DNA of 64,000 nt from IMG/VR virus record IMGVR_UViG_3300021387_000075; one strand, written 5' to 3'. Below the pieces are notes generated by a model, which saw only the letters and a program-made list of their open reading frames with translations, searched no databases and had not been told where the DNA came from. This DNA comes from a virus. Its lineage: Duplodnaviria > Caudoviricetes. The position numbers and the translations under genes were made by a program. Positions 37,118 to 54,589 of the stretch are shown piece by piece; within the stretch, counting starts at the first letter, position 1; each line of letters begins with the position of its first letter.

Positions 37118-37612
37118 TTTTTACTCCTTTTTACTCTTGGGTTTAGTTACGGCAGACCCACCTGCACAAATTTTTTATTTCGTTCTCTTGGAACACTTAT
37201 ATTATATCAGAAATTTGCGGAAAAGTCAAATGTTTGGTTCGAGAAAACTTGGAATCCAGTAGTAAATTTTTCCAGCATTTGCAGCTTCGAGGTCTAGGCA
37301 CATTTGTTCAGCTTGCGCCAAACTTAAAGTTACACATTCAATTCCAGTTTCTGGGGAATCTTCCAGCTCCCAGACGATAACATAACATCGTTCCATTTTC
37401 CAGCTCCTTTCTCTTTACACTATAATTATACACGAAATTTGCGCGAAAGTCAAATACTTGATAAATGTTTTTTGGATACAATCCGCAGCTTTCCAAATTT
37501 TGCCTCGAATTTTCACGCCGACGGAAATTCAGCTTGCGGCGGGTCCTTATGTTCCAATATGTGGGCCGAATATCGCAGCTCGCCGCAGGCCGAAAATCGG
37601 TGGAATCGATTT

Positions 37613-37954: not shown

Positions 37955-38146
37955 TTAGCTTGCGCTAACCTCTTCGATAATAACGTTGGTAAGTTTATAT
38001 ACTTTAGTCATATCAAATTTACATCCGCACTTATCACAAGTACAAGTCCACCACTGTTCGCCACCGAATTGGTCGAAGCTATCGCCATAGTCATTTACCT
38101 CATAGTCTTCACACCCGCATTTTGGGCAAGTTTCACTGTACGCCAT
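37955..38146 (-). CDS. Zn-ribbon small protein
   Basis: CPKC..CDKC. Confidence 0.7.
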   Translation of the reverse strand: MAYSETCPKCGCEDYEVNDYGDSFDQFGGEQWWTCTCDKCGCKFDMTKVYKLTNVIIEEVSAS

Positions 38147-38483
38147 TTTCTTTTTCCTCCTTTTCCTTCGCTCTACGTTCCTTATCCTTCCGTGCCTTTT
38201 CGGCACGAGCCTTGGCATCGGCTTCCTTCTTCGCCTGCTTAGCGTTGTACTCGTCAATTTCCTTCTGCATAAGCTCTTCGGCGGTCATGTCCTCACGCTC
38301 TTCGGCAACAATAGCGCCGATACGCACGTAGCGCTGGACGCCATTCAAATCGGTCAGGAGAACGCCATACTGACGATCATTGACTTTGGTATAAGCGTAG
38401 TCAGTCGGATATCCGTGGAAAATATCCGCAAAGACTTTATCACGCAGTTCCTGATTGACAACAGTAGTAGAAATCTTAGCCAT
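38133..38483 (-). CDS. hypothetical protein with charged C-terminal helix
   Basis: Promoter plus conserved leader; resembles 43473-43880. Confidence 0.75.
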   Translation of the reverse strand: MAKISTTVVNQELRDKVFADIFHGYPTDYAYTKVNDRQYGVLLTDLNGVQRYVRIGAIVAEEREDMTAEELMQKEIDEYNAKQAKKEADAKARAEKARKDKERRAKEKEEKENGVQ

Positions 38484-38539
38484 CTCAATTCCCTTTCTGG
38501 TTTGGGGTGTTTTCCTTCACCTTTCATAAGTATTATATA

Positions 38540-38773
38540 TCATTCGGTTAGGCTTGTCAAGTCTTTTTTCACATTTTCTAATAATTTATAGAAGAAATTT
38601 CGGTTGTGCCATTTAAGTTGAAATTGCTTCGGGTCTATAAAGCTCTGTTCGGCACATTGATAATTAGTACACCAGTAAAGTTTTTTAGTCTCCTCATAAT
38701 ATATCCAGTCATAACCATGCGCTTTAACCCAAGCATCGGGGCATCCTACCCCTTTGTATCCATATGTTATCAT
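38540..38773 (-). CDS. hypothetical protein
   Basis: Own promoter at ~38808-38836 and RBS. Confidence 0.55.
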   Translation of the reverse strand: MITYGYKGVGCPDAWVKAHGYDWIYYEETKKLYWCTNYQCAEQSFIDPKQFQLKWHNRNFFYKLLENVKKDLTSLTE

Positions 38774-38972
38774 AAGTTTCCTTTCTTTCTCTTCATCTTT
38801 CATATATATTATAACCTAAAATTTGTTACAAGTCAATAGTTAATTGTGTTACAATTCTGTTACAAATTCGCGGGCCGGCGGGCGAAAACTTAACACATTT
38901 GTAATAATTTTGCTATTGATTCGTAATTGCTTTTCTGCTATAATAAGAGCGTGGAAAGGAAGGTGCTAAGAG

Positions 38973-39473
38973 ATGCGTAACACTTACGAAGTTCGGGCTG
39001 AGAAGTTCATCCATCAGATTTTTAACTATATCTGGGAGTGCGAAAATGTTGATGACTATGAGTGGGCGGTAAATCACTTCAATTTCGAACACCACCGCAA
39101 CGTGAAGGTGGTCCACGGCCTGACTCGGGTGGCGCTGATTACCTCTGACTATGTGGTGAAGATTGATTGCGGTCGTGCCCACGATCTGGATACGTTCGGC
39201 GGTTGTGCCAACGAGTTCGATATCTACGCACAGGCCGAAGAGGATGGCTTCGCCTACCTCTTCGCTAAGCCCACAGAGGTTGTATATAATGGCCTGACCT
39301 TCTGCGTGATGCCCCGTATCCGTGGCATTGAGCGTGAACCTAATGACGCTGATTGGTATATGAGCGCCGAAGAGTGCGACTGGGTTTGTGAGCGGGTGTT
39401 TGATCTCCATAATGGAAATTATGGTTGGAAAGATGGCCATCCTGTACTGATCGACTATGCGGCGAATTGCTGA
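38973..39473 (+). CDS. minimal protein-kinase-like protein (166 aa)
   Basis: G..R.A..YVVKI, NE, DLHNGN catalytic loop, LIDY metal-binding motif. Confidence 0.75.
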   Translation: MRNTYEVRAEKFIHQIFNYIWECENVDDYEWAVNHFNFEHHRNVKVVHGLTRVALITSDYVVKIDCGRAHDLDTFGGCANEFDIYAQAEEDGFAYLFAKPTEVVYNGLTFCVMPRIRGIEREPNDADWYMSAEECDWVCERVFDLHNGNYGWKDGHPVLIDYAANC

Positions 39474-39574
39474 TGTTAGCTTCGGCTAACATTGGCCGGC
39501 GCGCCGTTGGATACTGTATACAATAGAAGCGCAAAGAAAAATCCCCACGATTGCCTGCGTGGGGTCAGTCTCCA

Positions 39575-39646
39575 TCTCGTTTATTGTTTGCCCAACGAGA
39601 AAGGGCATTCTGGAAAGGGGCTTTAAGGTTCAACCCCTTAGAACCT
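39575..39646 (-). ncRNA. two tandem H-type pseudoknots in 3' UTR
   Basis: AGGUUC/GAACCU with AAGGGGUU/AGCCCCUU; UGCCC/GGGCA with UCUCGUU/AACGAGA; terminator at 39537-39564. Confidence 0.65.
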
Positions 39647-39652
39647 CGGGCA

Positions 39653-39973
39653 TTAGCCCTTGAGGGTGTAGGCGTTGACCTTGCCCTCAATCTTCTCGAC
39701 CTCATTGGCCCAGTAGTTCCGCAGACCGTAGACGATCTTGCCCTTGGCGTAACCAGTCTCGTCCGCCAGTTCCTGAGCGGTCACGGGAGCGGTAGCGGAC
39801 TTCAGAGTCTCGATGACCGCATCGTGAATCTCCTCGTAGATTGCCCGATTCGCCTGCGCCTTAGTCTCACCCTTGGCCAGTTCGGCAACGATCTCGTCAT
39901 AAACATTCATCAGTTCGGCGATGTTGTGGTCGTTGATGTAGGAAGCGATGGTCTGCATAGTGGATTTCTTCAT
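39653..39973 (-). CDS. winged-helix protein, paralog 1
   Basis: PVTAQELADE..KGKIVYGL..W..EVEKIEGKVNAY. Confidence 0.8.
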   Translation of the reverse strand: MKKSTMQTIASYINDHNIAELMNVYDEIVAELAKGETKAQANRAIYEEIHDAVIETLKSATAPVTAQELADETGYAKGKIVYGLRNYWANEVEKIEGKVNAYTLKG

Positions 39974-40091
39974 TGTATAATTCCTTTCTGGTTTTTTAAG
40001 AGTTTTCCTTCTCTTCATCTTTCGTAGTTATTGTATCATAAGTTTGGAAGTTTGTCAAGAGGTTTCCGAAAATTTTCTCCCTTTTATTTTC

Positions 40092-40160
40092 GGTCAAGAG
40101 AATCATCGGGTCTTGCGTTTCCATGGAGATTTGTTTCCGCTCCCGTTCTCCCTCTCAACA
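40092..40160 (-). ncRNA. candidate promoter-driven hairpin ncRNA
   Basis: Own consensus promoter; GUUGAGAG/CUCUUGAC and CGGG/CCCG stems; no RBS-led ORF seen. Confidence 0.45.
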
Positions 40161-40744
40161 TCCTTATTATATCAGATTTCGGGGAGTTTGTCAAGGGTTT
40201 TTTCAACTTTTTTTCAAAGTTTTTTTCGCCCTCGGGAAGCTCGCTCCCTTCACCTGACATATATAATTATACTCGAAATTCGGAAAAAGTCAAGCACTTT
40301 TTTTGAAGAATACTGTATACAATCGCGGGCCGGCCAAAATGGACCGAAGTCCATTATAGCACGAATCGAACAATCGGACGATCTTTCTTAGAGTACCGAG
40401 CAAACACCATAAACCGCAACCAGAGGGCTTTCATTATGGGAAGATAGCGGACAGTCTGTTCTCCTTCAAGGTTTTTCAGATACACATTCATTTTGATGTT
40501 CCTCCTTCAAGAAAAAGCTGAAATCATTCATAATACATTCATAAGCGAAAAAGCAACTTTCGTCCGCATGGCACAGGGCGCATTTCCTGCACTTGCTTGA
40601 ATTGGCTACGACTTCCCACAAGTAGGCATTGAGTGTTTCCATAGTTTCCATCTCCTTTCAACATAGACATTGTATCATAGAAAAGGAAAACTGTCAACAG
40701 GAAAATTATTACAAAAGTATTAAATCGTGCCGGCGCGAAAGGGC

Positions 40745-40978
40745 TTACGCCCTTTCGTCATACAAAGTAAAATCATCAACCTCACGCACAAAGCCGCAAG
40801 CATTGTCAATGAAGGTAAAGCCATTATCTTTGGCTTTGAGAATCAAATCATTCATATCCTTGCGAAGGATCGCTTCTTCACGCTTACGGGTGCGGATAGC
40901 ACGAAGATTGTTAATAATGGTAGTCAGTTCCTCATCACTCATGTTGTCTGTGTCAATCATAATCTTGCCAATTCTCAT
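40745..40978 (-). CDS. hypothetical protein
   Basis: Single-gene cassette with promoter and terminator. Confidence 0.7.
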   Translation of the reverse strand: MRIGKIMIDTDNMSDEELTTIINNLRAIRTRKREEAILRKDMNDLILKAKDNGFTFIDNACGFVREVDDFTLYDERA

Positions 40979-41078
40979 TCGGGGTACCTTCCTTTCCTTT
41001 CGATACTTATATTATACTCACTTTTGCGCCAATGTCAATAGGAAAATTATTACAATTCTGTTAAATGCGCCGGCGGCC

Positions 41079-41744
41079 TCACTTGGAAGCCTTGGCACGC
41101 AAGGCTTCCAAGCATTTAGTAAAAATCTCTTTTTCAATTTCTACATCTTTAAGTCCTGTATGTGATTCAACAAAGTCATTGTTCTTACTAATATATCTCC
41201 AAAGCACTTCTGCGGTGAAGCGAGGGCGAGGGGTGGCGTGGTTTGTCATGTATCCGTTTTCCTTACAGAACGCAATATATTGTGGGTCATTACCAAATAC
41301 TTTCTTAGACAGTTTCAAGCTGTCAATAACTTTCATCCCATAGGGCAAGAAATACCGCTTTCGGGATTTAGTCTGGTAACGCATAGTGGCGTTAAGGGTT
41401 TGGATATCAAATCTGGAATTGTGTGCCACCACCGCCTGAACGTTGTACTTTTCGCACAGTTCTTTTACCGTATTATACATGCCCCACGTATCCACGATTT
41501 TGTGATTACCCATCCGCATGTCTTCAATGTATTTCGGGATTTTTTCGGCATAATATGCATCCTGCATCTGTTCGGGCATCCGAAAGAAAACATCCTCATT
41601 AATGACGCTGAAACGTGCTTTCTCCTCCCCATACTCATTGATTACCGCACCGCCGAGATCATAGACCTGACCGTTTTTTACATCCAGTTGTCCATCTACT
41701 ACGGGAGTGTTACAAGTTTCGCTATCAAATACCAAGAAGTTCAT
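41079..41744 (-). CDS. DEDDh 3'-5' exonuclease, paralog 1
   Basis: FDSET, AHNSRFD, HTGLKD. Confidence 0.88.
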   Translation of the reverse strand: MNFLVFDSETCNTPVVDGQLDVKNGQVYDLGGAVINEYGEEKARFSVINEDVFFRMPEQMQDAYYAEKIPKYIEDMRMGNHKIVDTWGMYNTVKELCEKYNVQAVVAHNSRFDIQTLNATMRYQTKSRKRYFLPYGMKVIDSLKLSKKVFGNDPQYIAFCKENGYMTNHATPRPRFTAEVLWRYISKNNDFVESHTGLKDVEIEKEIFTKCLEALRAKASK

Positions 41745-41880
41745 TGGAGTTACCTTTCTGGTTTGCGTTGTTTTCCTTCAACTTTCAAGTATGATTATAC
41801 CACGGAAAATAGAAATGTCAATAGGTATTTTGTTACAAAAGTATTAAATCTGCGGGCCGGCCGAGTTAGCGAGTGCTAAC

Positions 41881-42150
41881 TCATTTGAGAAAGCACTCAT
41901 ACCAAGCATAGTCGCCCCACGTGCCATTATTTACTACCTCGGTCTTATAGTCTTCCCACGCCTGCTCTTCGCCCTCTTCGGTGTTGGGGTAATCTCGATC
42001 TTCAACCCAAGAGTTGAAGTCCCGTTCTACAAACCAACCATAACGGCGCTCATCCAACCATTTGAAACATTCGTCCATAACTTTATCGAAATCAGTATAG
42101 GCAACCTGCGGTTCGCCTTCAAGAGTAATGACATAAATACGAGTAGCCAT
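41881..42150 (-). CDS. acidic aromatic-rich hypothetical protein
   Basis: RBS AGGAGG. Confidence 0.65.
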   Translation of the reverse strand: MATRIYVITLEGEPQVAYTDFDKVMDECFKWLDERRYGWFVERDFNSWVEDRDYPNTEEGEEQAWEDYKTEVVNNGTWGDYAWYECFLK

Positions 42151-42161
42151 ATTATCCCTCC

Positions 42162-42419
42162 TTAGCAATCATCGGTATACATTCCAAGATAAGGGTCAAA
42201 GCCCATATCATAGTCTTCATCATAGTTATCATCGGGAGTATCATCATAGGAAAGCCATTCGTCCCACGAGTCGAAGAACATTGCGAAGTCCTCGCAATCT
42301 TCCATTGGGTCATCAATGTGGCACACGTTGCACTGGTCGCAATAGGGGCAAGCGCCATAAGCATTGACAGTGCAGTAAGTGGTTTCACCGTTGTAAGTTC
42401 CCTGTTTTGCGTCTCTCAT
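42162..42419 (-). CDS. Cys-rich, very acidic small protein
   Basis: CPYCDQCNVC; Asp-rich tail. Confidence 0.65.
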   Translation of the reverse strand: MRDAKQGTYNGETTYCTVNAYGACPYCDQCNVCHIDDPMEDCEDFAMFFDSWDEWLSYDDTPDDNYDEDYDMGFDPYLGMYTDDC

Positions 42420-42669
42420 ACTAATACTCCTTTCAATCTGGCTCTGGCCTGTTTCCGTAAGCGCTTTTTCAGTTTCCGCATAGAGGGTGTGCTCTGGTTA
42501 ATCCACTTGCGGCATCCTTTATCTAAATCCCAAGCGGCGAGTTCATCAAACTTCTTGTATCTCGCTCTCTGCATCTCTCATCCCTCCTGACACTATTTAT
42601 TATACTCAGATTTGAAAAAAAGTCAATAGGTAAAATTGTTAAGTTTTTGTTACGCGCCGGCCGCCCGCC

Positions 42670-43359
42670 TCACTCCTCATCGAGTTCGGCAAGGCGTGCC
42701 ATTTTCTTATGCCTGCGGACGCACTCTGCGAAAATCTGCGCTTCAATTTGTACATCCTCTAACCCCGTGTGACTTTCTTCAAAGTCATTGTCGTTGGTCA
42801 GAAAGCGCCACAGAATTTCGGCAGTCTTACGCACCTGAGGGGTCTTGTGGTTGGTCATATATCCATTCTCTACACAGAACCGCCGATAGTTGGACTGCTT
42901 GCAAATGGTATCATTCGCCATAGTCATAGTATCCCAAATCGGGATACCATACGGGAAGAAAAATCTACGCTTGCTCTTGGTCTGATACCGAAGGGTTGAG
43001 TTTAAAACCCTCACATCAAATCTGGCATTGTGGGCAATGAAAGCCTTGATTTCATACTGTGCCACGAGTTCCCGCACAATCTTATACAGTTGCCAAGTAT
43101 TGACGATCTGGCGCTTGCCCATCCGAATATCGGTTAAGTACTGGGGAATTTTATCCGCAAAGTATGCTTCACGCATAGCTTCGGGCAGTCCGAAGAATAC
43201 ATCTTCATTCACAAAGGACATTTCCTTATACACAAAGCCCTCATTGTCTACGATTTGAAGGCCGAAGTCATAAACCTGACCGCAAGTCGTGTCTAACTGT
43301 CCGTCTACCTTCGGGGTGTTACAAGTCTCAGTATCAAATACCATATACAGATTCTTCAT
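42670..43359 (-). CDS. DEDDh 3'-5' exonuclease, paralog 2
   Basis: FDTET, AHNARFD, HTGLED; alignable end to end with 41079-41744. Confidence 0.88.
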   Translation of the reverse strand: MKNLYMVFDTETCNTPKVDGQLDTTCGQVYDFGLQIVDNEGFVYKEMSFVNEDVFFGLPEAMREAYFADKIPQYLTDIRMGKRQIVNTWQLYKIVRELVAQYEIKAFIAHNARFDVRVLNSTLRYQTKSKRRFFFPYGIPIWDTMTMANDTICKQSNYRRFCVENGYMTNHKTPQVRKTAEILWRFLTNDNDFEESHTGLEDVQIEAQIFAECVRRHKKMARLAELDEE

Positions 43360-43472
43360 TGCGTTTCGCTCCTTTCAACATAGCCATTATATCACTTTAT
43401 AGGATGCGTGTCAACCCCTTTTTGAAAAAAATTTTCGCGCCGGCCCGTTAGTCACGACTAACAAGAAAAGGG

Positions 43473-43880
43473 TCACGCCTGGGGCGTGACCTTAATCTTG
43501 CGGAGTTCCTTCAACCCCTTGTTTGCTTCCGCAAGGGCTTTCTTTTCCTCACGGGCTTTCTGGTCTTTGGCAATCTTGGCCTGCTTCTTCTCTTCGGCCT
43601 TGGCTTTCTTCTGCGCCTTTTCTTCAAGGTCAATCTGGTAATCTTCGGCGACAGAATAGCCATCATAAGGGATGTATCCACCGTTGCCATCACGAGCGCC
43701 ACGAGGGATAGACACCTTAATCACCGCCCACGTTTCATTGCCATCGGGATCAAGGCAAGGCACCGCAATCTCGTTGGCGCTCACCGCAAGCGCATCCGTG
43801 GCCTTTTCGGTTTCAATCGCCTTAGCAATCAGGGACAGGAAGTCGTTACGAATCGTGGTTTCCATCTGGGCTTTAGTCAT
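43473..43880 (-). CDS. hypothetical protein with Lys/Glu-rich C-terminus
   Basis: Own promoter; resembles 38133-38483. Confidence 0.75.
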   Translation of the reverse strand: MTKAQMETTIRNDFLSLIAKAIETEKATDALAVSANEIAVPCLDPDGNETWAVIKVSIPRGARDGNGGYIPYDGYSVAEDYQIDLEEKAQKKAKAEEKKQAKIAKDQKAREEKKALAEANKGLKELRKIKVTPQA

Positions 43881-44129
43881 CTAACATCGCTCCTTTCGTT
43901 CTTACAGGAAGATTGTATCACACTTTGTCGGGGTTGTCAAGGGGTTCTTGAAGATTTTTTTCGATCTTCTTTCCTCTTGATCTGGATATATTATACTATA
44001 AATTTTGAAGTTTGTCAAGAATTTTTTTAAAAGAATACTGTATACAATTTTGGCGGGCCGGCTCCAGTTAGCTATGGCTAACTAGCGCCGATAAGAAAAG
44101 CCCACCTTGCGGTGGGCGATAGGTCAGGA

Positions 44130-44462
44130 TTAGCGCCGAGTGTAGGAATTAACCTTGCCCTCGTGCTTGACCACATCCTTATCCCAGTAGTGGCCCAGAG
44201 CGTACTGAACCTTGGCCTTGGTGAAGCCATCAGGGAGAGACTCCTTCACAGCTTCATAGATCTCAGCGACCGTGGCGGGATACTCCGTATCCAGAGCGCC
44301 ATAGACTACATCCCAGGCGGTCTCATACAGCTCACGGTTGGCCTGAGCTTTCTCAGCTCCTTTGCTCAGCTCAGCTTTCAGCTCGCTCCGCACCGCTTCG
44401 GCTTCGGGAGTCTCGATGGTGGCAATCAGGGACAGGATGGTGTTCATAGTGGTCTTCTTCAT
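44130..44462 (-). CDS. winged-helix protein, paralog 2
   Basis: PATVAEIYEAV..TKAKVQYAL..W..VVKHEGKVNSY. Confidence 0.8.
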   Translation of the reverse strand: MKKTTMNTILSLIATIETPEAEAVRSELKAELSKGAEKAQANRELYETAWDVVYGALDTEYPATVAEIYEAVKESLPDGFTKAKVQYALGHYWDKDVVKHEGKVNSYTRR

Positions 44463-44712
44463 AGTGGTAACCCTTTCTGGTTTGTGGGGTTTTCCTTCCC
44501 CTATTTCGTATTTATTGTACCACGGTTTCGGGAGTTTGTCAAGAGGTTTTTTGAACTTTTTTCAAAGTTTTTTTTGACCTCTGGGATTCTCTCCCGTTCC
44601 CCTTGGAACAATTATATTATAGCAGGAATTAGGAAAAAGTCAATAGTTTTTTTGAAAAAAAGATTGTTAAGTTTTTCACAAGCGGCGGGCCGGCACGAAA
44701 GTAGACCGAAGT

Positions 44713-44973
44713 CTACTTGTACAGAAGGGAAAGGAAGTAGAGATTGAGAACAACGCTTGATAAATGCATCATAACATCGTTGATGTGTCGATGCTGGGAG
44801 AGGTCTTTACATACGCCGAACACCGCCACAGCAAGTCCAAACCACGAAACTTGAAGGCCGAAAAGCATAATCAGAGCCACGTTTAAGATTGTAATTCCGC
44901 AACGAACATCATTCCATTCGAAGCGATAGGCGGTTTCAATTCCGAACCAATTCTTAATCGTCTGCATTTTCAT
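44713..44973 (-). CDS. small membrane protein ending in TAG
   Basis: Hydrophobic segments; terminal TAG lies inside the terminator hairpin. Confidence 0.65.
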   Translation of the reverse strand: MKMQTIKNWFGIETAYRFEWNDVRCGITILNVALIMLFGLQVSWFGLAVAVFGVCKDLSQHRHINDVMMHLSSVVLNLYFLSLLYK

Positions 44974-45184
44974 TTCTCCTTGCCCATTCAAGATATTGCT
45001 TGCTCATCTTTTTAATATTATCAGGGGTAAAACCATTGTTAATATTATACCAAGTGGAAACATAAAAGGGGATACCATGACGAGTTGCACAATTCGCAAC
45101 CGCATTGACAAGGCGAGTAATTATCAGACGAAACCAGACATATTTCCACAATCCGTGGAAATCATTACCATAGAACATTCTCAA
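44954..45184 (-). CDS. hypothetical protein
   Basis: First gene behind promoter at ~45217-45244. Confidence 0.55.
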   Translation of the reverse strand: MRMFYGNDFHGLWKYVWFRLIITRLVNAVANCATRHGIPFYVSTWYNINNGFTPDNIKKMSKQYLEWARRNENADD

Positions 45185-45348
45185 TCCATCCTTTCCGTTC
45201 CTCTTGGAACAATATCATTATACCACGTTATATAAGAATGTCAATAGGAAAATTGTTACAATTCCATTAACAAATTTGTGCCGGCCCGAGTTAGCGGCGG
45301 CTAACTGGCGAGAAAAGAAAAGCCCTCCTCAAAGGGAGGGCTTTTCTA

Positions 45349-45675
45349 TTAAGCCTTGCGAGAGTAGGTATTAACCTTGCCCTCGATCTTGTCGATGTCG
45401 TCCTTCCACAGGCGGGTGATGGCATACTGGAGGTTGCCCTTCGTGAAGCCCTCGGGCAGGGTGTCCTGCACCGCCTCGTAGATTTCGGTGATGGTCGCAG
45501 GGGCATCCATCACGGCGAGGACAATATCCTTCGCCTGAGCGTACAGAGCGTCCTTCGCCTGCTTGGCTTCGGAGTTGCGGTTGATTTCCTTCTGGAACTC
45601 AGCGAGGATTTCGGCATTGTCGAAGCCCTTGGCGGTCAGGAAAGCGTAAACAGTGGCGTAAGTGGTGTTCTTCAT
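45349..45675 (-). CDS. winged-helix protein, paralog 3
   Basis: PATITEIYEAV..TKGNLQYAI..W..IDKIEGKVNTY. Confidence 0.8.
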   Translation of the reverse strand: MKNTTYATVYAFLTAKGFDNAEILAEFQKEINRNSEAKQAKDALYAQAKDIVLAVMDAPATITEIYEAVQDTLPEGFTKGNLQYAITRLWKDDIDKIEGKVNTYSRKA

Positions 45676-45780
45676 GGTGATAATTCCTTTCTGGTTTGTG
45701 AGGTTTTCCTTCCTCTGTTTTCATAAGTATTATATCATGGGGTTTCGGGTTTGTCAAGGGTTTTTTTAAATTTCTTTTTT

Positions 45781-45872
45781 GTTCTTCGGGAGCCTGTTTC
45801 GTGTGCGTCCACACAGGGTTGTGCGCCCATCCCATGAAGGCTTGCCTTGGTTTCTCCTGTCTCCCTCGGAAC
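45781..45872 (-). ncRNA. candidate multibranch ncRNA
   Basis: Own promoter; GGGAG/CUCCC closing stem with several internal hairpins. Confidence 0.45.
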
Positions 45873-45968
45873 AATTATAGTATATCACAATTTTAGGAAA
45901 AGTCAAGCACTTTTTGAAAAAAAGATTGACAACTTTTTAACAATCCGCGGGCCGGCTTGGGAGTTAGC

Positions 45969-46406
45969 TTACGCTAACTCCTTCAAGATTTCAATCATTT
46001 TGTCAGGGGTGAAAGCCTGTCCGTGCCATGCCTTGCGGTTCGGGGCTTCATCATCGAAGAGGATATCATCATCGGAATGTTTGAACTGGTATTTTGGAAC
46101 ACCATATCCGACAATCTCAATCTCATCGAACCGAACGCTTGCGAGGTGACGCCGAAGCCAATTCAGTTTGGCGGTGGCAATCTCATCACAGTAAGCTTCG
46201 GGCGCATTTTTGGCAGTCCAACTAATGATTCCCAACTTACAACCTGCCTTCTGTGCCTTATTCATCAGGCGAGCAAGATAGCTCATATTCCACATGACTT
46301 TGGCGTTTTCGTAAGGGGTAGTCTCACGAGCGAGAAGCATATCAAGCCAACCATCAACCCCATACAGGTCAGCAATCGTTCCATCCATATCCCACCAAAT
46401 CGTCAT
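45969..46406 (-). CDS. HAD-family 5'(3')-deoxyribonucleotidase-like, paralog 1
   Basis: DMDGTIADLY, ISWT, K, LFDD. Confidence 0.85.
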   Translation of the reverse strand: MTIWWDMDGTIADLYGVDGWLDMLLARETTPYENAKVMWNMSYLARLMNKAQKAGCKLGIISWTAKNAPEAYCDEIATAKLNWLRRHLASVRFDEIEIVGYGVPKYQFKHSDDDILFDDEAPNRKAWHGQAFTPDKMIEILKELA

Positions 46407-46514
46407 TCGATCAACTCCTTCCGTTTCTGTACCTGTATTATAGCATAGAGTTTCGGGAAAGTCAATAGTTTGATGTTACATTTTTCTGACATCGCTGGCC
46501 GGCGCGAAACCGAA

Positions 46515-47114
46515 TTAGGTTAATTCGGCCTGCTCTAGAATGGCTAAACTGTTTGGAAGTTTTTCTGCTAAATCCTGAACATCAATTTTTACCTTAAAAC
46601 GATCTTTGGAAATAAAATTTTTTAAGGTATATTTCTTTACTAAGTAGTTACGAGCAACACTTTCGAGAGAAGTAGCATCCACTTTGTGCGTGTCAATCGT
46701 GTAAAGAATTTTTCCATGATCAACTGACGGGTATTTATTAAGATGCTGTTTCATTCTCCGTTCTACATCAACCGAAGTTCCAATTTTGTCAAATACGTGC
46801 TTATTATCTTTATCATAAAAGCGCATGATATAAAAATAATCATGGTAATGTAAAATGTTTTCAATAGCTTCAACTACCTGTTGAGTAATCCGCTTAATAA
46901 ATTTAGCTGTATATCTTAATGCTTCTTTTACATATTCCCAAGTCTCACGAACAATAGGGAATTTGTCATAGATATCAAGCATGTGTTCAAACCGTGTTTT
47001 TCTGGTTTCAGTAGTTTCGGCTTCCATCATTTTGCCATACTGATAATTCATTTCTTCTTTTGCCTGTTCATCAGAAGAAATCCTATTCACGTTGAACCGT
47101 CCCCGCATTGCCAT
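46515..47114 (-). CDS. GIY-YIG/T5orf172-like protein
   Basis: FYIMRF..KIGTSVDVERRMKQH..LE. Confidence 0.7.
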   Translation of the reverse strand: MAMRGRFNVNRISSDEQAKEEMNYQYGKMMEAETTETRKTRFEHMLDIYDKFPIVRETWEYVKEALRYTAKFIKRITQQVVEAIENILHYHDYFYIMRFYDKDNKHVFDKIGTSVDVERRMKQHLNKYPSVDHGKILYTIDTHKVDATSLESVARNYLVKKYTLKNFISKDRFKVKIDVQDLAEKLPNSLAILEQAELT

Positions 47115-47303
47115 TGTCCTGTCCCTCTCTGGTTTGTAAGGTATCCTTCCTTTTCTTTCGTTCCCCTTGGAACAATATAATAATACCACTATATTATAAT
47201 CTTGTCAACCCCTTTTTTAGGATTTTTTCAAAAAAAATGCGCCGGCCCGTTAGCCGTGGGTAACAGAATGAAATAAAAAGACCGCCCGAAGGCGGTCAAG
47301 GGC

Positions 47304-47633
47304 TTACGCCCTCCGATAGGTGTTAGGCTTGCCCTCGATCTTCACGATCTCATCCTGCCACAGATGGGTCAGGGCATACTGAACCTTGCCCTTGGTGATG
47401 CCATCGGGAACGTTCTCCTCGATGGACTCCCACAGTTCGCCACAGGTGACAGGGGTATCAGACAGGGCTTCCACGATCAGAGCGTGAATGGACTCATACG
47501 CTTCGGCGTTCTTGTCCTTCTGCGCCTGTCCCTTAGACAGTTCGGCGGTCAGTTCCGCAATCTCGTTAGCGTACTTTTCGGGGTCGATAGCGGTCAGAGC
47601 GGTCAGGATGGTGTTCATGGTAGCTTTCTTCAT
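47304..47633 (-). CDS. winged-helix protein, paralog 4
   Basis: PVTCGELWESI..TKGKVQYAL..W..IVKIEGKPNTY. Confidence 0.8.
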   Translation of the reverse strand: MKKATMNTILTALTAIDPEKYANEIAELTAELSKGQAQKDKNAEAYESIHALIVEALSDTPVTCGELWESIEENVPDGITKGKVQYALTHLWQDEIVKIEGKPNTYRRA

Positions 47634-47744
47634 GGTAAGTTTCCTTTCTGGTTTGGGAGGTGTCCTTCCTCTTTGTGTATTCATTATATCACTTTCGTGA
47701 TCTAATGTCAAGGGTTTCGGGAAAATTTTTTTTGATATTACGTT

Positions 47745-47835
47745 CGGGAAAGTCGCCACTTGCGCCTGTGGGATTGGGGGATCAGTCCCGACCTTCCCGT
47801 TCTTTCAGAGGGTGATCCGCTCTCCCTCTGACATT
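47745..47835 (-). ncRNA. candidate ncRNA (hairpin + 3-way junction)
   Basis: Own promoter; UCAGAGGG/CCCUCUGA and CGGGAAGGUCG/CGACUUUCCCG. Confidence 0.5.
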
Positions 47836-47899
47836 GTCATTGTATCACACCCCGTGGGGTTTGTCAAGGGGATTTTCAAATTTCTTTGAAAATTTGTTT

Positions 47900-47958
47900 C
47901 GTTACCGTGTGTCCGCAAACAGGAGTGCCTTTCGGCTTATCTCCTGTCCCCTTGGAAC
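47900..47958 (-). ncRNA. candidate ncRNA
   Basis: Own promoter; ACAGGAG/CUCCUGU with GCC-GAAA-GGC; 5' end resembles the 45872 unit. Confidence 0.45.
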
Positions 47959-48055
47959 GATATAAGTATATCACAGATTTCATATTGAGTCAAGCATTTT
48001 AGGAAAAAAAGATTGATAACTTTTTCACAAAGTCGGGCCGGCGCGCAGAAGGAAA

Positions 48056-52723: not shown

Positions 52724-53520
52724 TCCACCCGCCGAAAACTTTTTTCAAAAAAGTTTGAAAAAAGGGTTGACAAATCCGGCAAAATGATATATACTTATAT
52801 CATCAAGAGGGGGAAACCCCAGAAAGGCGGTACCAAATGAAGTACGTTGAGAACACCATGGAAGCCCTGATTGAGAAGGCCCTGCGGGAGATGGAAGAGA
52901 AGGGCGAAAAGCTCCCCGAGATCCGGTACGACGAAGGGCGCTAAGCCCTTCGGCCGGATCGGGCCGGTTATATGATACAAAAATGCTGTTTTTTTGTTAG
53001 CCATGGCTAACAAGTACTCGCACTCTCCCCTGTCCCTCCCCTCGGTGCAATTGTATTATAGCATACCGGCCCGAGATTGTCAACACTTTTTTCAAAAAAA
53101 ATTAAGCCGTGATCCTTAGTGGATCACGGCCACCACGATTCCCGTGGTATCGGTTTCAAGGTGGATCACCTCATCCCAGAGGTCGCGCGCCTCGATCCAT
53201 CTAATGGCCTCGCGGATATCGGTTCCGATTACTTTATCGCTCTCATGCATTGCTTCTCGCTCCCTTCTTTTGATAGTTATATTATAGCATAAAGTTGAAA
53301 AAAGTCAAGACTTTTTTATAATGGAAAAAGCCCTTTTTCTTTTGATCCGGGACTTTAGCAAACTAAAGTATCGGACCGGGCCGGCTACATTAACGTTAAT
53401 GTAACTGGGATCCCGGGCATTAACGTTAATGTAAAAAAGTAAAATAAAATTGAAAAAAGGTGTTGACAGACCGGACGAAAGGTGATATACTTATATCATC
53501 AAAGAGAGGAGGACACCGAG

Positions 53521-54238: not shown

Positions 54239-54589
54239 CCCATCCCGAAAAAAAGTTGTTGACAAACCCGGCAAGATGTGATACTATATAGTCACAGGGA
54301 GGAACCCTGAAACGAAAGGAGACCGAAAAATGTACGAGATCATCAACCTGACCACCAAGGCCACCGAGGGAATCTTTGCCACCTATGAAAGCGCTGTGAA
54401 TTGGGTCAAGGCCCACGGCGACGCCAAGAACTTCCGGATCCTTCCGTGGTGATCCGGAAGCCGATCCGGCGCACAGTACTAACTAAGCCGGCTGGACCGG
54501 CCCTAACATTAACATTAACGTTAATGTAAAAAGTTGATTTTTTTTAAAAAAAGGGCTTGCATTTTTCCCTAACTTGTGATAATATAAAG

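Follow-up and report, generated by a model that had tools for sequence, protein, structure and literature searches.

Seven minus-strand genes in the IMG/VR virus record IMGVR_UViG_3300021387_000075 (Duplodnaviria; Caudoviricetes) share a leader of about 40 nt, and the question this locus raises is what RNA element the leader forms and on what it acts. The stretch analysed, referred to below as the window, is 64,000 nt long, and the start codons concerned lie at 38483, 39973, 41744, 44462, 45675, 47114 and 47633. The original prediction, made from the letters of the window, had described a hairpin with an AAGGA loop upstream of a GGA-containing ribosome-binding site, had seen in this combination the architecture bound by CsrA, and had proposed an undescribed translational regulon or enhancer. 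Natural variation among related viral contigs points to a more elaborate fold: the leader is very probably a tiny H-type pseudoknot, in which the loop GG pairs with a CC placed just 5' of the Shine-Dalgarno sequence.

The leader and its first stem

Read on the mRNA, the order of parts is constant: a promoter-like site, a stem of 4-5 bp, the loop, the closing stem, a linker (C/A/G)(C/A)AAA, CC, AGA(A/G)AGG and ATG. In the window, AGA(A/G)AGG stands 8-10 nt from ATG, and the -10 box ends 10-14 nt before the stem, or 27 nt before it in the sixth leader. The loop is AAGGAAAA in five of the seven copies, AAGGAUA and AAGGACA occurring once each. Six exact matches and one with a single mismatch represent the string AAACCAGAAAGG in the window; with up to two mismatches it is found 19 times against 5.9 expected, a number that none of 100 shuffles reaches.

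All coordinates below run in the sense of the minus-strand transcript, and scores are those of the covariance model described further on. Leader 1 (38481..38521, 58.7 bits) precedes a gene termed family B (116 aa; 38136-38483). Its stem 1 pairs GGUG (38521-38518) with CACC (38509-38506) around the loop AAGGAAAA (38517-38510, with GG at 38515-38514); then follow the linker CCAAA, which becomes loop 3 of the pseudoknot, CC (38500-38499), the Shine-Dalgarno AGAAAGG (38498-38492) and ATG (38483-38481), while the promoter-like site TTGACA-17-TATAAT (38532..38560) ends 10 nt before the stem. Leader 2 (39971..40015, 40.8 bits) belongs to a winged-helix paralog of family A (106 aa) and has the stem AAGAG (40015-40011)/CUCUU (40002-39998), the loop AAGGAAAA (40010-40003, GG 40008-40007), loop 3 AAAAAA, CC at 39991-39990, the Shine-Dalgarno at 39989-39983 and ATG at 39973-39971; its promoter-like site, TTGACA-17-TACAAT (40030..40058), lies 14 nt from stem 1. 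In leader 3 (41742..41782, 52 bits), in front of a DnaQ-like exonuclease gene (221 aa), GUUG (41782-41779) pairs with CAAC (41770-41767), the loop AAGGAAAA occupies 41778-41771 (GG 41776-41775), and loop 3 GCAAA leads to CC (41761-41760), the Shine-Dalgarno (41759-41753) and ATG (41744-41742), with TTGACA-16-TATAAT (41794..41821) 11 nt upstream of the stem. Leader 4 (44460..44501, 56.9 bits), again of a family A paralog (110 aa), combines GGGG (44501-44498)/CCCC (44489-44486), AAGGAAAA (44497-44490, GG 44495-44494), loop 3 ACAAA, CC (44480-44479), the Shine-Dalgarno (44478-44472) and ATG (44462-44460) behind TTGACA-17-TACAAT (44514..44542), at a distance of 12 nt.

The remaining three follow the same plan. 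Leader 5 (45673..45715, 57.7 bits; family A paralog, 108 aa) has GAGG (45715-45712)/CCUC (45703-45700), AAGGAAAA (45711-45704, GG 45709-45708), loop 3 ACAAA, CC (45694-45693), the Shine-Dalgarno (45692-45686) and ATG (45675-45673), with TTGACA-17-TATAAT (45729..45757) 13 nt before the stem. Leader 6 (47112..47152, 38.8 bits) serves a T5orf172/GIY-YIG-like endonuclease gene (199 aa): AAGG (47152-47149) pairs with CCUU (47141-47138) around AAGGAUA (47148-47142, GG 47146-47145), loop 3 is ACAAA, CC lies at 47132-47131, the Shine-Dalgarno reads AGAGAGG (47130-47124), ATG is at 47114-47112, and the promoter-like site TTGACA-17-TATTAT (47180..47208) is the one 27 nt away. Leader 7 (47631..47671, 42.8 bits; family A paralog, 109 aa) repeats the stem of leader 5, GAGG (47671-47668)/CCUC (47660-47657), with the loop AAGGACA (47667-47661, GG 47665-47664), loop 3 CCAAA, CC (47651-47650), the Shine-Dalgarno (47649-47643) and ATG (47633-47631); TTGACA-17-TATAAT (47683..47711) stands 11 nt upstream.

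All seven hairpin sites of the original prediction are therefore present, its positions being plus-strand coordinates of the 3' stem arm, and every stem it listed pairs as stated. Its statement that four winged-helix paralogs all carry the leader holds as well: the family A proteins (about 108 aa) are 36-46% identical to one another, and the predicted structure is a confident winged-helix fold (predicted local distance difference test score, pLDDT, 94.8). A covariance model of the kind it had called for, R1, built from related viral contigs only, recovers all seven window sites, which score 38.8-58.7 bits (E 2e-8 to 8e-14), and no others above 14 bits, the score of the next match. Covariation that lost significance in a larger alignment would, it had said, refute it, and for stem 1 this covariation goes far beyond chance: a gapless alignment of 61 sequences scores 0.593, a value that none of 500 shuffles attains (0.17), and every slid register of the stem scores 0.13 or less. 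The inner 4 bp take 32 distinct forms among 209 leaders. Gapless sets (A2, A5) were used; a MAFFT alignment of 150 leaders (A1) was out of register in about a quarter of its rows, and a cmsearch alignment (A4) was set aside because its filters had removed most copies with swapped loops. Folding z-scores of -1.2 to +0.7 give no thermodynamic signal, so that the case for structure rests on covariation.

Two paralogous DnaQ-like exonuclease genes, both assigned to phrog_20187, differ in their leaders. That at 41079-41744 (-) has the pseudoknot leader and that at 42670-43359 (-) a plain GAAAGGAG leader, which argues that the leader is a module and not a by-product of gene duplication.

The pattern AAGGA, 6-10 nt, AAACCAGARAGG was found in at least 119 IMG/VR stretches; among the 194 matches listed, 173 have a stem of at least 3 bp and an ATG, and 153 of those a promoter-like site too. 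In each of four complete relatives (170-188 kb; three have terminal repeats) the 4-9 copies all fall inside one stretch of 10-12 kb. The same pattern run over 596 Gb of bacterial and archaeal genomes, which served as the background control for the hairpin criterion, gave, among the matches listed, mostly single ones in all phyla; about 20 of those listed show the full architecture, nearly all on contigs of Clostridia-type metagenome-assembled genomes (MAGs) and often several per contig. This confinement of the full architecture to phage-like contigs makes the motif a property of a phage clade and not of bacterial genes. Rfam yielded no match at the gathering score in the 64-kb window and none on the leaders at E up to 5 (38400-47800), and megablast of 38-48 kb against INPHARED phages returned nothing. 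In sensitive mode, a query with 42 nt of leader matched a single unannotated fragment of 4 kb from human faeces (MT839743.1), all else being chance matches and no cultured phage carrying the leader; a full-text literature search found no paper describing it, the motif sequence itself not being among the things searched. Together these data support a real, covarying, phage-restricted element without an Rfam family, and we infer from contig sequences and names that its carriers are a clade of large uncultured gut or rumen phages of Clostridia.

A second helix between loop and linker

The evidence for the pseudoknot comes from exchanges between the loop and the linker, of which the first four combinations were scanned in IMG/VR under one rule: a hairpin of at least 4 bp adjoining the loop and an ATG 4-12 nt after AGG. 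The common form, loop AAGGA with linker AAACCAG, is represented by at least 172 leaders. AACGA loops were first met in a relaxed search, where each was paired with AAACGAG in place of AAACCAG, and under the rule this doubly changed form accounts for 37 leaders. The singly changed combinations are nearly absent, AACGA with AAACCAG passing once, without a promoter, and AAGGA with AAACGAG in none of 56 matches. The swapped form has many first stems, among them AGGG/CCCU, AGUC/GACU, AGGAG/CUCCU, GGAG/CUCC and AAGAG/CUCUU, and it shares nine loci with the wild-type form, a coexistence that fits pairing within one molecule.

Further exchanges appeared in upstream regions of family A genes, which had been gathered by protein homology and hence blind to the leader sequence. 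A U:A version joins the loop AAUGGCA to ..AAAACA|AGAAAGG, and two versions have three pairs: CCG:CGG, with the loop AGCCGA(A/UA) and ..AAACGG|AGAAAGG, and CUG:CAG, with the loop AGCUGAUAAA and ..AAACAG|GGAAAGG. In the IMG/VR scan the CCG:CGG class comprises 8 leaders with five different first stems, the wild-type loop combined with the CGG linker passing in 0 of 11 matches. A search defined only by structure and context (promoter, hairpin, purine-rich Shine-Dalgarno, ATG) gave 230 leaders, and in 217 of them loop bases 3-4 can pair with the dinucleotide preceding the Shine-Dalgarno. G:C, C:G and U:A, always compensated, occur at both positions of stem 2; an A:U/U:A swap in an otherwise wild-type loop (AAWGA..AAACWAG) gave chance-looking matches only, the existing U:A form having the loop AAUGG. 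Many swapped copies precede family A genes, so the independent events must be fewer than the copies; at least four different stem 2 switches are required nonetheless.

Compensatory changes are thus found in both helices, as in an H-type pseudoknot. Since the loop GG can be replaced by CG, UG, CCG or CUG only together with a complementary change in the linker, the loop acts as a helix strand and not as a GGA read for its sequence. The deduced knot consists of a stem 1 of 4-5 bp, a loop 1 of two bases (AA or AG), a stem 2 of 2-3 bp, a loop 2 of 3-4 bases, A(A/C/U)A(A) in the common form, and a loop 3 of mostly five A-rich bases (..CAAA), whose length, we propose, would let it line the groove of stem 1. 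Pairing of the CC with the Shine-Dalgarno GG as a mini-hairpin was considered and rejected, as in the swapped forms CG would face GG.

These exchanges bear directly on CsrA. CsrA and RsmA recognise two-site targets, of which the B. subtilis hag leader is an example, and the common form of the phage leader does resemble them, with an A(N)GGA hairpin loop about 20 nt upstream of a purine-rich, often GGA-containing site at the Shine-Dalgarno. Host CsrA might on this view bind both sites and repress the genes, or be titrated by the leaders. The variants make this extremely unlikely. The loops AACGA (37), AGCCG (8), AAUGG and AGCUG have no GGA, all with compensatory linker changes, and GGA-less and common forms coexist in the same phages at the nine shared loci; GGA in the loop can be lost provided that loop and linker remain complementary. 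Nor is the second GGA a constant feature: among 209 leaders, AGG is followed by A (120), G (57), C (17) or T (15), so that about 15-20% (C or T in 32 of 209) lack GGA at the Shine-Dalgarno, the window example being AGGUA at 41753. A search for three families, CsrA (PF02599), S21 and S1-domain proteins, found no such gene in four complete relatives and one partial relative, and among the genome-scan matches listed the motif was not seen on host genes. Of the original prediction, the CsrA architecture and the GGA-containing ribosome-binding site consequently find no support, while the idea of an undescribed element common to a set of genes and tied to their ribosome-binding sites stands at the level of sequence.

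The dimensions of the knot recall another class of RNA. In preQ1-I aptamers, a 5-bp P1 is joined by a P2 of 2-4 bp formed from the 3' tail, an A-rich tail lies in the P1 groove, and the Shine-Dalgarno is at the 3' end. Compared with the solved structures (RF00522), the phage leader has a similar size of about 34-40 nt, a first stem of 4-5 bp, a very short second stem, an A-rich tail and a Shine-Dalgarno bordering it on the 3' side; with a short stem 2 and 3-4 nt in loop 2, a ligand would have space where the helices meet, and a fold that is marginal alone is expected of a switch. A very small ligand-sensing riboswitch of preQ1-I topology is nonetheless very unlikely. RF00522 does not match, nor does any other Rfam riboswitch model even at E up to 5, and the loop bases differ. 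The Shine-Dalgarno lies outside stem 2, so that folding would not hide it. The downstream genes have no queuosine or other metabolic theme (winged-helix, small protein, DnaQ-like, GIY-YIG-type and about 60 other clusters), and 4-9 copies per genome on unrelated genes would be unusual.

Contact with the Shine-Dalgarno sequence

In every version of the leader, the 3' strand of stem 2 ends exactly at the start of AGAAAGG, and in the relatives AGG lies 7-10 nt from ATG, with a mode of 8. AGAAAGG is the complement of the last seven bases of Firmicute-type 16S rRNA (CCUUUCU-3'), established for B. subtilis, and the frequent AGAAAGGAG sites at the phage's other genes argue for a host with such a 16S tail. 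The Shine-Dalgarno of the pseudoknot leaders differs from those around it: GGAG, which 318 of the 745 other promoter-driven genes of the same loci contain, is present in 3 of the 209 leaders with a pseudoknot, and GG is about 3 nt closer to ATG (mode 8 against 11 in other genes of these loci). AGAAAGG is followed by AG in 3 of the 209, compared with 43 of 219 AGAAAGG sites without a knot. Substitutions within the Shine-Dalgarno are nearly all A to G, which preserves pairing with U.

The position of the knot relative to the 5' end is much looser. In most copies it begins 7-12 nt after the -10 box, which would place it 1-5 nt from the 5' end of the transcript; in others the distance is 20 nt or more, and in leader 6 and several relatives another hairpin (GUUCC-AAGR-GGAAC) stands between promoter and knot. 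This variable distance and the intervening hairpin indicate that the knot has its obligatory partner in the ribosome-binding site, not in the 5' end. The same observations bear on whether the leader is a 5' stabiliser and nothing more, either a terminal hairpin or a loop that holds a 30S subunit in the manner of a stabilising Shine-Dalgarno (STAB-SD) against RNase J1, without pseudoknot or role in initiation. Known Gram-positive stabilisers, aprE, cryIIIA STAB-SD and ermC, work near the 5' end (PMC3997798), and the phage leader would share with them a structure near the predicted 5' end, in most copies, and a strong Shine-Dalgarno, a combination known there from highly expressed genes of Firmicute-type systems. 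They are, however, plain hairpins or Shine-Dalgarno-like sequences without conserved loops or a pseudoknot, and not repeated, sequence-conserved modules. A 4-bp stem with an 8-nt loop would be a weak barrier, the loop is no longer Shine-Dalgarno-like in the compensated variants, and the invariant contact is with the Shine-Dalgarno rather than with the 5' end, the knot of leader 6 and of many relatives lying behind another 5' hairpin. A purely stabilising role is accordingly very improbable, and the compensated variants speak against a loop serving as a second, ribosome-holding Shine-Dalgarno.

Anchoring to the start site also counts against a signal at the level of transcription, a boxB/nut- or put-like RNA enabling RNA polymerase to read through the terminators that follow each cassette. 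Such a signal could be sought in a promoter-proximal hairpin with a conserved A-rich loop and a conserved linear element, all the more as every cassette ends in a terminator-like hairpin. Yet the element is fixed to the Shine-Dalgarno and the ATG distance, not to the promoter, and it is found on only 7 of about 40 promoter units in the region, which look monocistronic; we regard antitermination as scarcely credible.

Although the proteins encoded downstream have diverged to 12-50% identity between these phages, the unpaired bases of the leader hardly change, and this points to a partner that evolves slowly, probably a host component such as the ribosome. Together with the fixing of the knot to the Shine-Dalgarno and the special type and spacing of the latter, this near-invariance favours a role in cis. 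Each of the seven genes would form a one-gene unit driven by a host-type (sigma-70/sigma-A-like) promoter, and the knot would act in cis on the ribosome-binding region of these early phage messages. It would hold the Shine-Dalgarno exposed and supply a helix end on which the Shine-Dalgarno/anti-Shine-Dalgarno helix stacks or with which it docks on the 30S platform, the outcome being efficient and uniform initiation. Where it lies 1-5 nt from the predicted 5' end, as in most copies, decay dependent on the 5' end would be blocked as well; a review of Gram-positive mRNA names the 5' end together with the initiation region as its key protectors (PMC3997798). The pseudoknot and this double role in initiation and mRNA protection, taken jointly, are put forward tentatively, as something near an even call, and we infer both the action through host ribosome or RNases and the direction of the effect. 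One narrower mechanism would be this: if the rRNA 3' end pairs as far as the border of stem 2, stacking of the two helices becomes possible. In its full form, a ribosome-recruiting device, stem 2 would end where the 3'-terminal U of 16S rRNA starts pairing with AGAAAGG, and end-on stacking would dock the knot on the 30S platform; this we consider rather unlikely.

The main rival reading makes the knot a translational operator, or a cleavage tag, on which a phage-encoded protein would act, providing coordinated shut-off or autoregulation of early messages. Among the T4 models, RegA has its targets at the ribosome-binding sites of early messages and RegB in their Shine-Dalgarno sequences. The gene 32 operator of T4, T2 and RB69 is a 5' leader pseudoknot about 40-67 nt upstream, followed by a long unstructured A/U-rich tract where gp32 polymerises (PMC3014915, PMC535899); gp32 binds the pseudoknot and spreads over the ribosome-binding site (PMC3014915). 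That system, which combines translational control of a small nucleic-acid-binding protein with an unusually stable message, resembles the present one in placing a small H-type pseudoknot in a phage 5' leader upstream of the ribosome-binding site. It concerns one gene, whereas here 4-9 unrelated genes per genome carry the element, stem 2 has only 2-3 bp, the knot touches the Shine-Dalgarno without a long A/U tract, and there is no sequence similarity. A protein bound to a knot that touches the Shine-Dalgarno would block the ribosome, and 106 of 208 leader copies precede families A and B, which would fit autoregulation by these small proteins; either could be the factor. Family B is, relatives included, the second most common gene behind the leader, and its model (pLDDT 89.6) comprises a helix, a beta-hairpin and a highly charged K/E helix of about 45 residues.

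Several observations make such an operator doubtful, though possible. A phage-encoded partner should co-evolve with its site, and the site is almost invariant across the phages with 12-50% identical proteins. Foldseek matched family A to generic winged-helix, DNA-binding proteins only (best E 0.013) and found no structural neighbour of family B in the PDB; neither search points to RNA binding, and none of the three RNA-binding domain families searched (CsrA, S21, S1-domain) was found. The element also precedes about 60 unrelated gene clusters. The structural results for the two families decide nothing between action in cis and an operator.

A number of points weigh against the role in cis that we favour. 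Near-invariant unpaired loop bases beside freely varying stems have the look of an RNA recognised by a protein, and a phage-specific element in one 10-12 kb region, with 4-9 target genes per genome, is regulon-like. Among the genome-scan matches listed, the leader occurs only on phage-like Clostridia MAG contigs and never on host genes, where a leader optimal for host ribosomes would be expected. Not every member of the two main gene families has the element: plain leaders stand in front of 21 out of some 146 genes of family A and 34 out of some 85 of family B. What kind of host is involved, and so what 16S 3' end it has, is deduced from the phage's own AGAAAGGAG-type sites and from MAG names. 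As for the fold, stem 1 by itself is marginal (minimum free energy -4 to -10 kcal/mol), and the common form has a stem 2 of no more than 2 bp. Mg2+, the ribosome, a protein or a ligand may therefore have to assist the knot in forming; it probably needs tertiary contacts, and perhaps a partner.

Surrounding transcription units and significance

The leaders lie in a region of unusual layout. From 36 to 53 kb the window is a dense run of short minus-strand transcription units, each with a near-consensus TTGACA-17-TATAAT, and about 40 such sites lie between 33 and 55 kb, or about 45 when near-consensus sites are counted over 33500-55100. Minus-strand units extend to about 53.3 kb and plus-strand units begin at about 52.5 kb, giving 33500-55100 a divergent, early-region-like arrangement of one-gene cassettes, each closed by a GC hairpin and then GCCGGC. 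Upstream of each family A gene, one or two extra consensus promoters drive stretches of 70-150 nt without an open reading frame (ORF), at 40060-40293, 43941-44018, 44545-44643, 45760-45906 and 47715-47993 (-); the stretches are candidate small RNA genes, or the promoters may be decoys. A scan of the 64-kb window with ARAGORN gave no tRNA.

A second conserved transcript start, the hairpin GUUCC-AAG(A/G)-GGAAC directly after the -10 box, follows the promoter-like sites at 37201-37229, 44616-44643, 45217-45244, 45877-45906, 47180-47208 and 47965-47993 (-) and recurs in relatives L010, L041 and L085. It precedes the knot of leader 6 (47158..47175, -, with the core GUUCC-AAGG-GGAAC), lies ahead of the gene at 45184, whose Shine-Dalgarno is plain, and also starts units in which no ORF is evident. 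Simpler leaders are found on the plus strand: GGGG-GAAA-CCCC at 52796-52836 is followed directly by AGAAAGG, its helix end adjoining the Shine-Dalgarno as stem 2 does in the pseudoknot leaders, and CAGGG-AGGAA-CCCUG at 54288-54331 is followed by AAACGAAAGGAG. Yet another type stands upstream of family A genes in relatives (L097:3691-3753, L098:524-586, L090:8188-8250), where the GUUCC hairpin is followed by a hairpin with a CC-bearing loop (AACCAAUA or ACCUAC) and then directly by the Shine-Dalgarno. Judged by this arrangement, the loop CC could pair with the Shine-Dalgarno GG, in a variant that hides it.

The pseudoknot leader belongs in kind with 5'-leader pseudoknots that act at initiation. 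The E. coli rpsO pseudoknot and the tisB 5' pseudoknot (PMC7708055), examples of structured leaders that serve as standby sites or dock on the 30S platform, act at 30S binding; these are single-gene, host-encoded, larger and dependent on S15 or S1, whereas the present element is a phage-wide module beside an exposed Shine-Dalgarno. The list of phage leader elements acting at the ribosome-binding site is short, and this one would extend it by a very small, well-supported RNA motif. Natural copies of it number in the hundreds, its second helix exists in at least five compensated versions, and its length of 40 nt brings it within reach of direct structural and reporter experiments. Its modularity, seen in the many unrelated gene clusters it precedes, suggests that it could serve as a portable expression element for Firmicutes. 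If the ribosome-recruiting mechanism were true, the early messages of this phage clade would enjoy privileged initiation, through a truncated Shine-Dalgarno set about 3 nt nearer the start codon.

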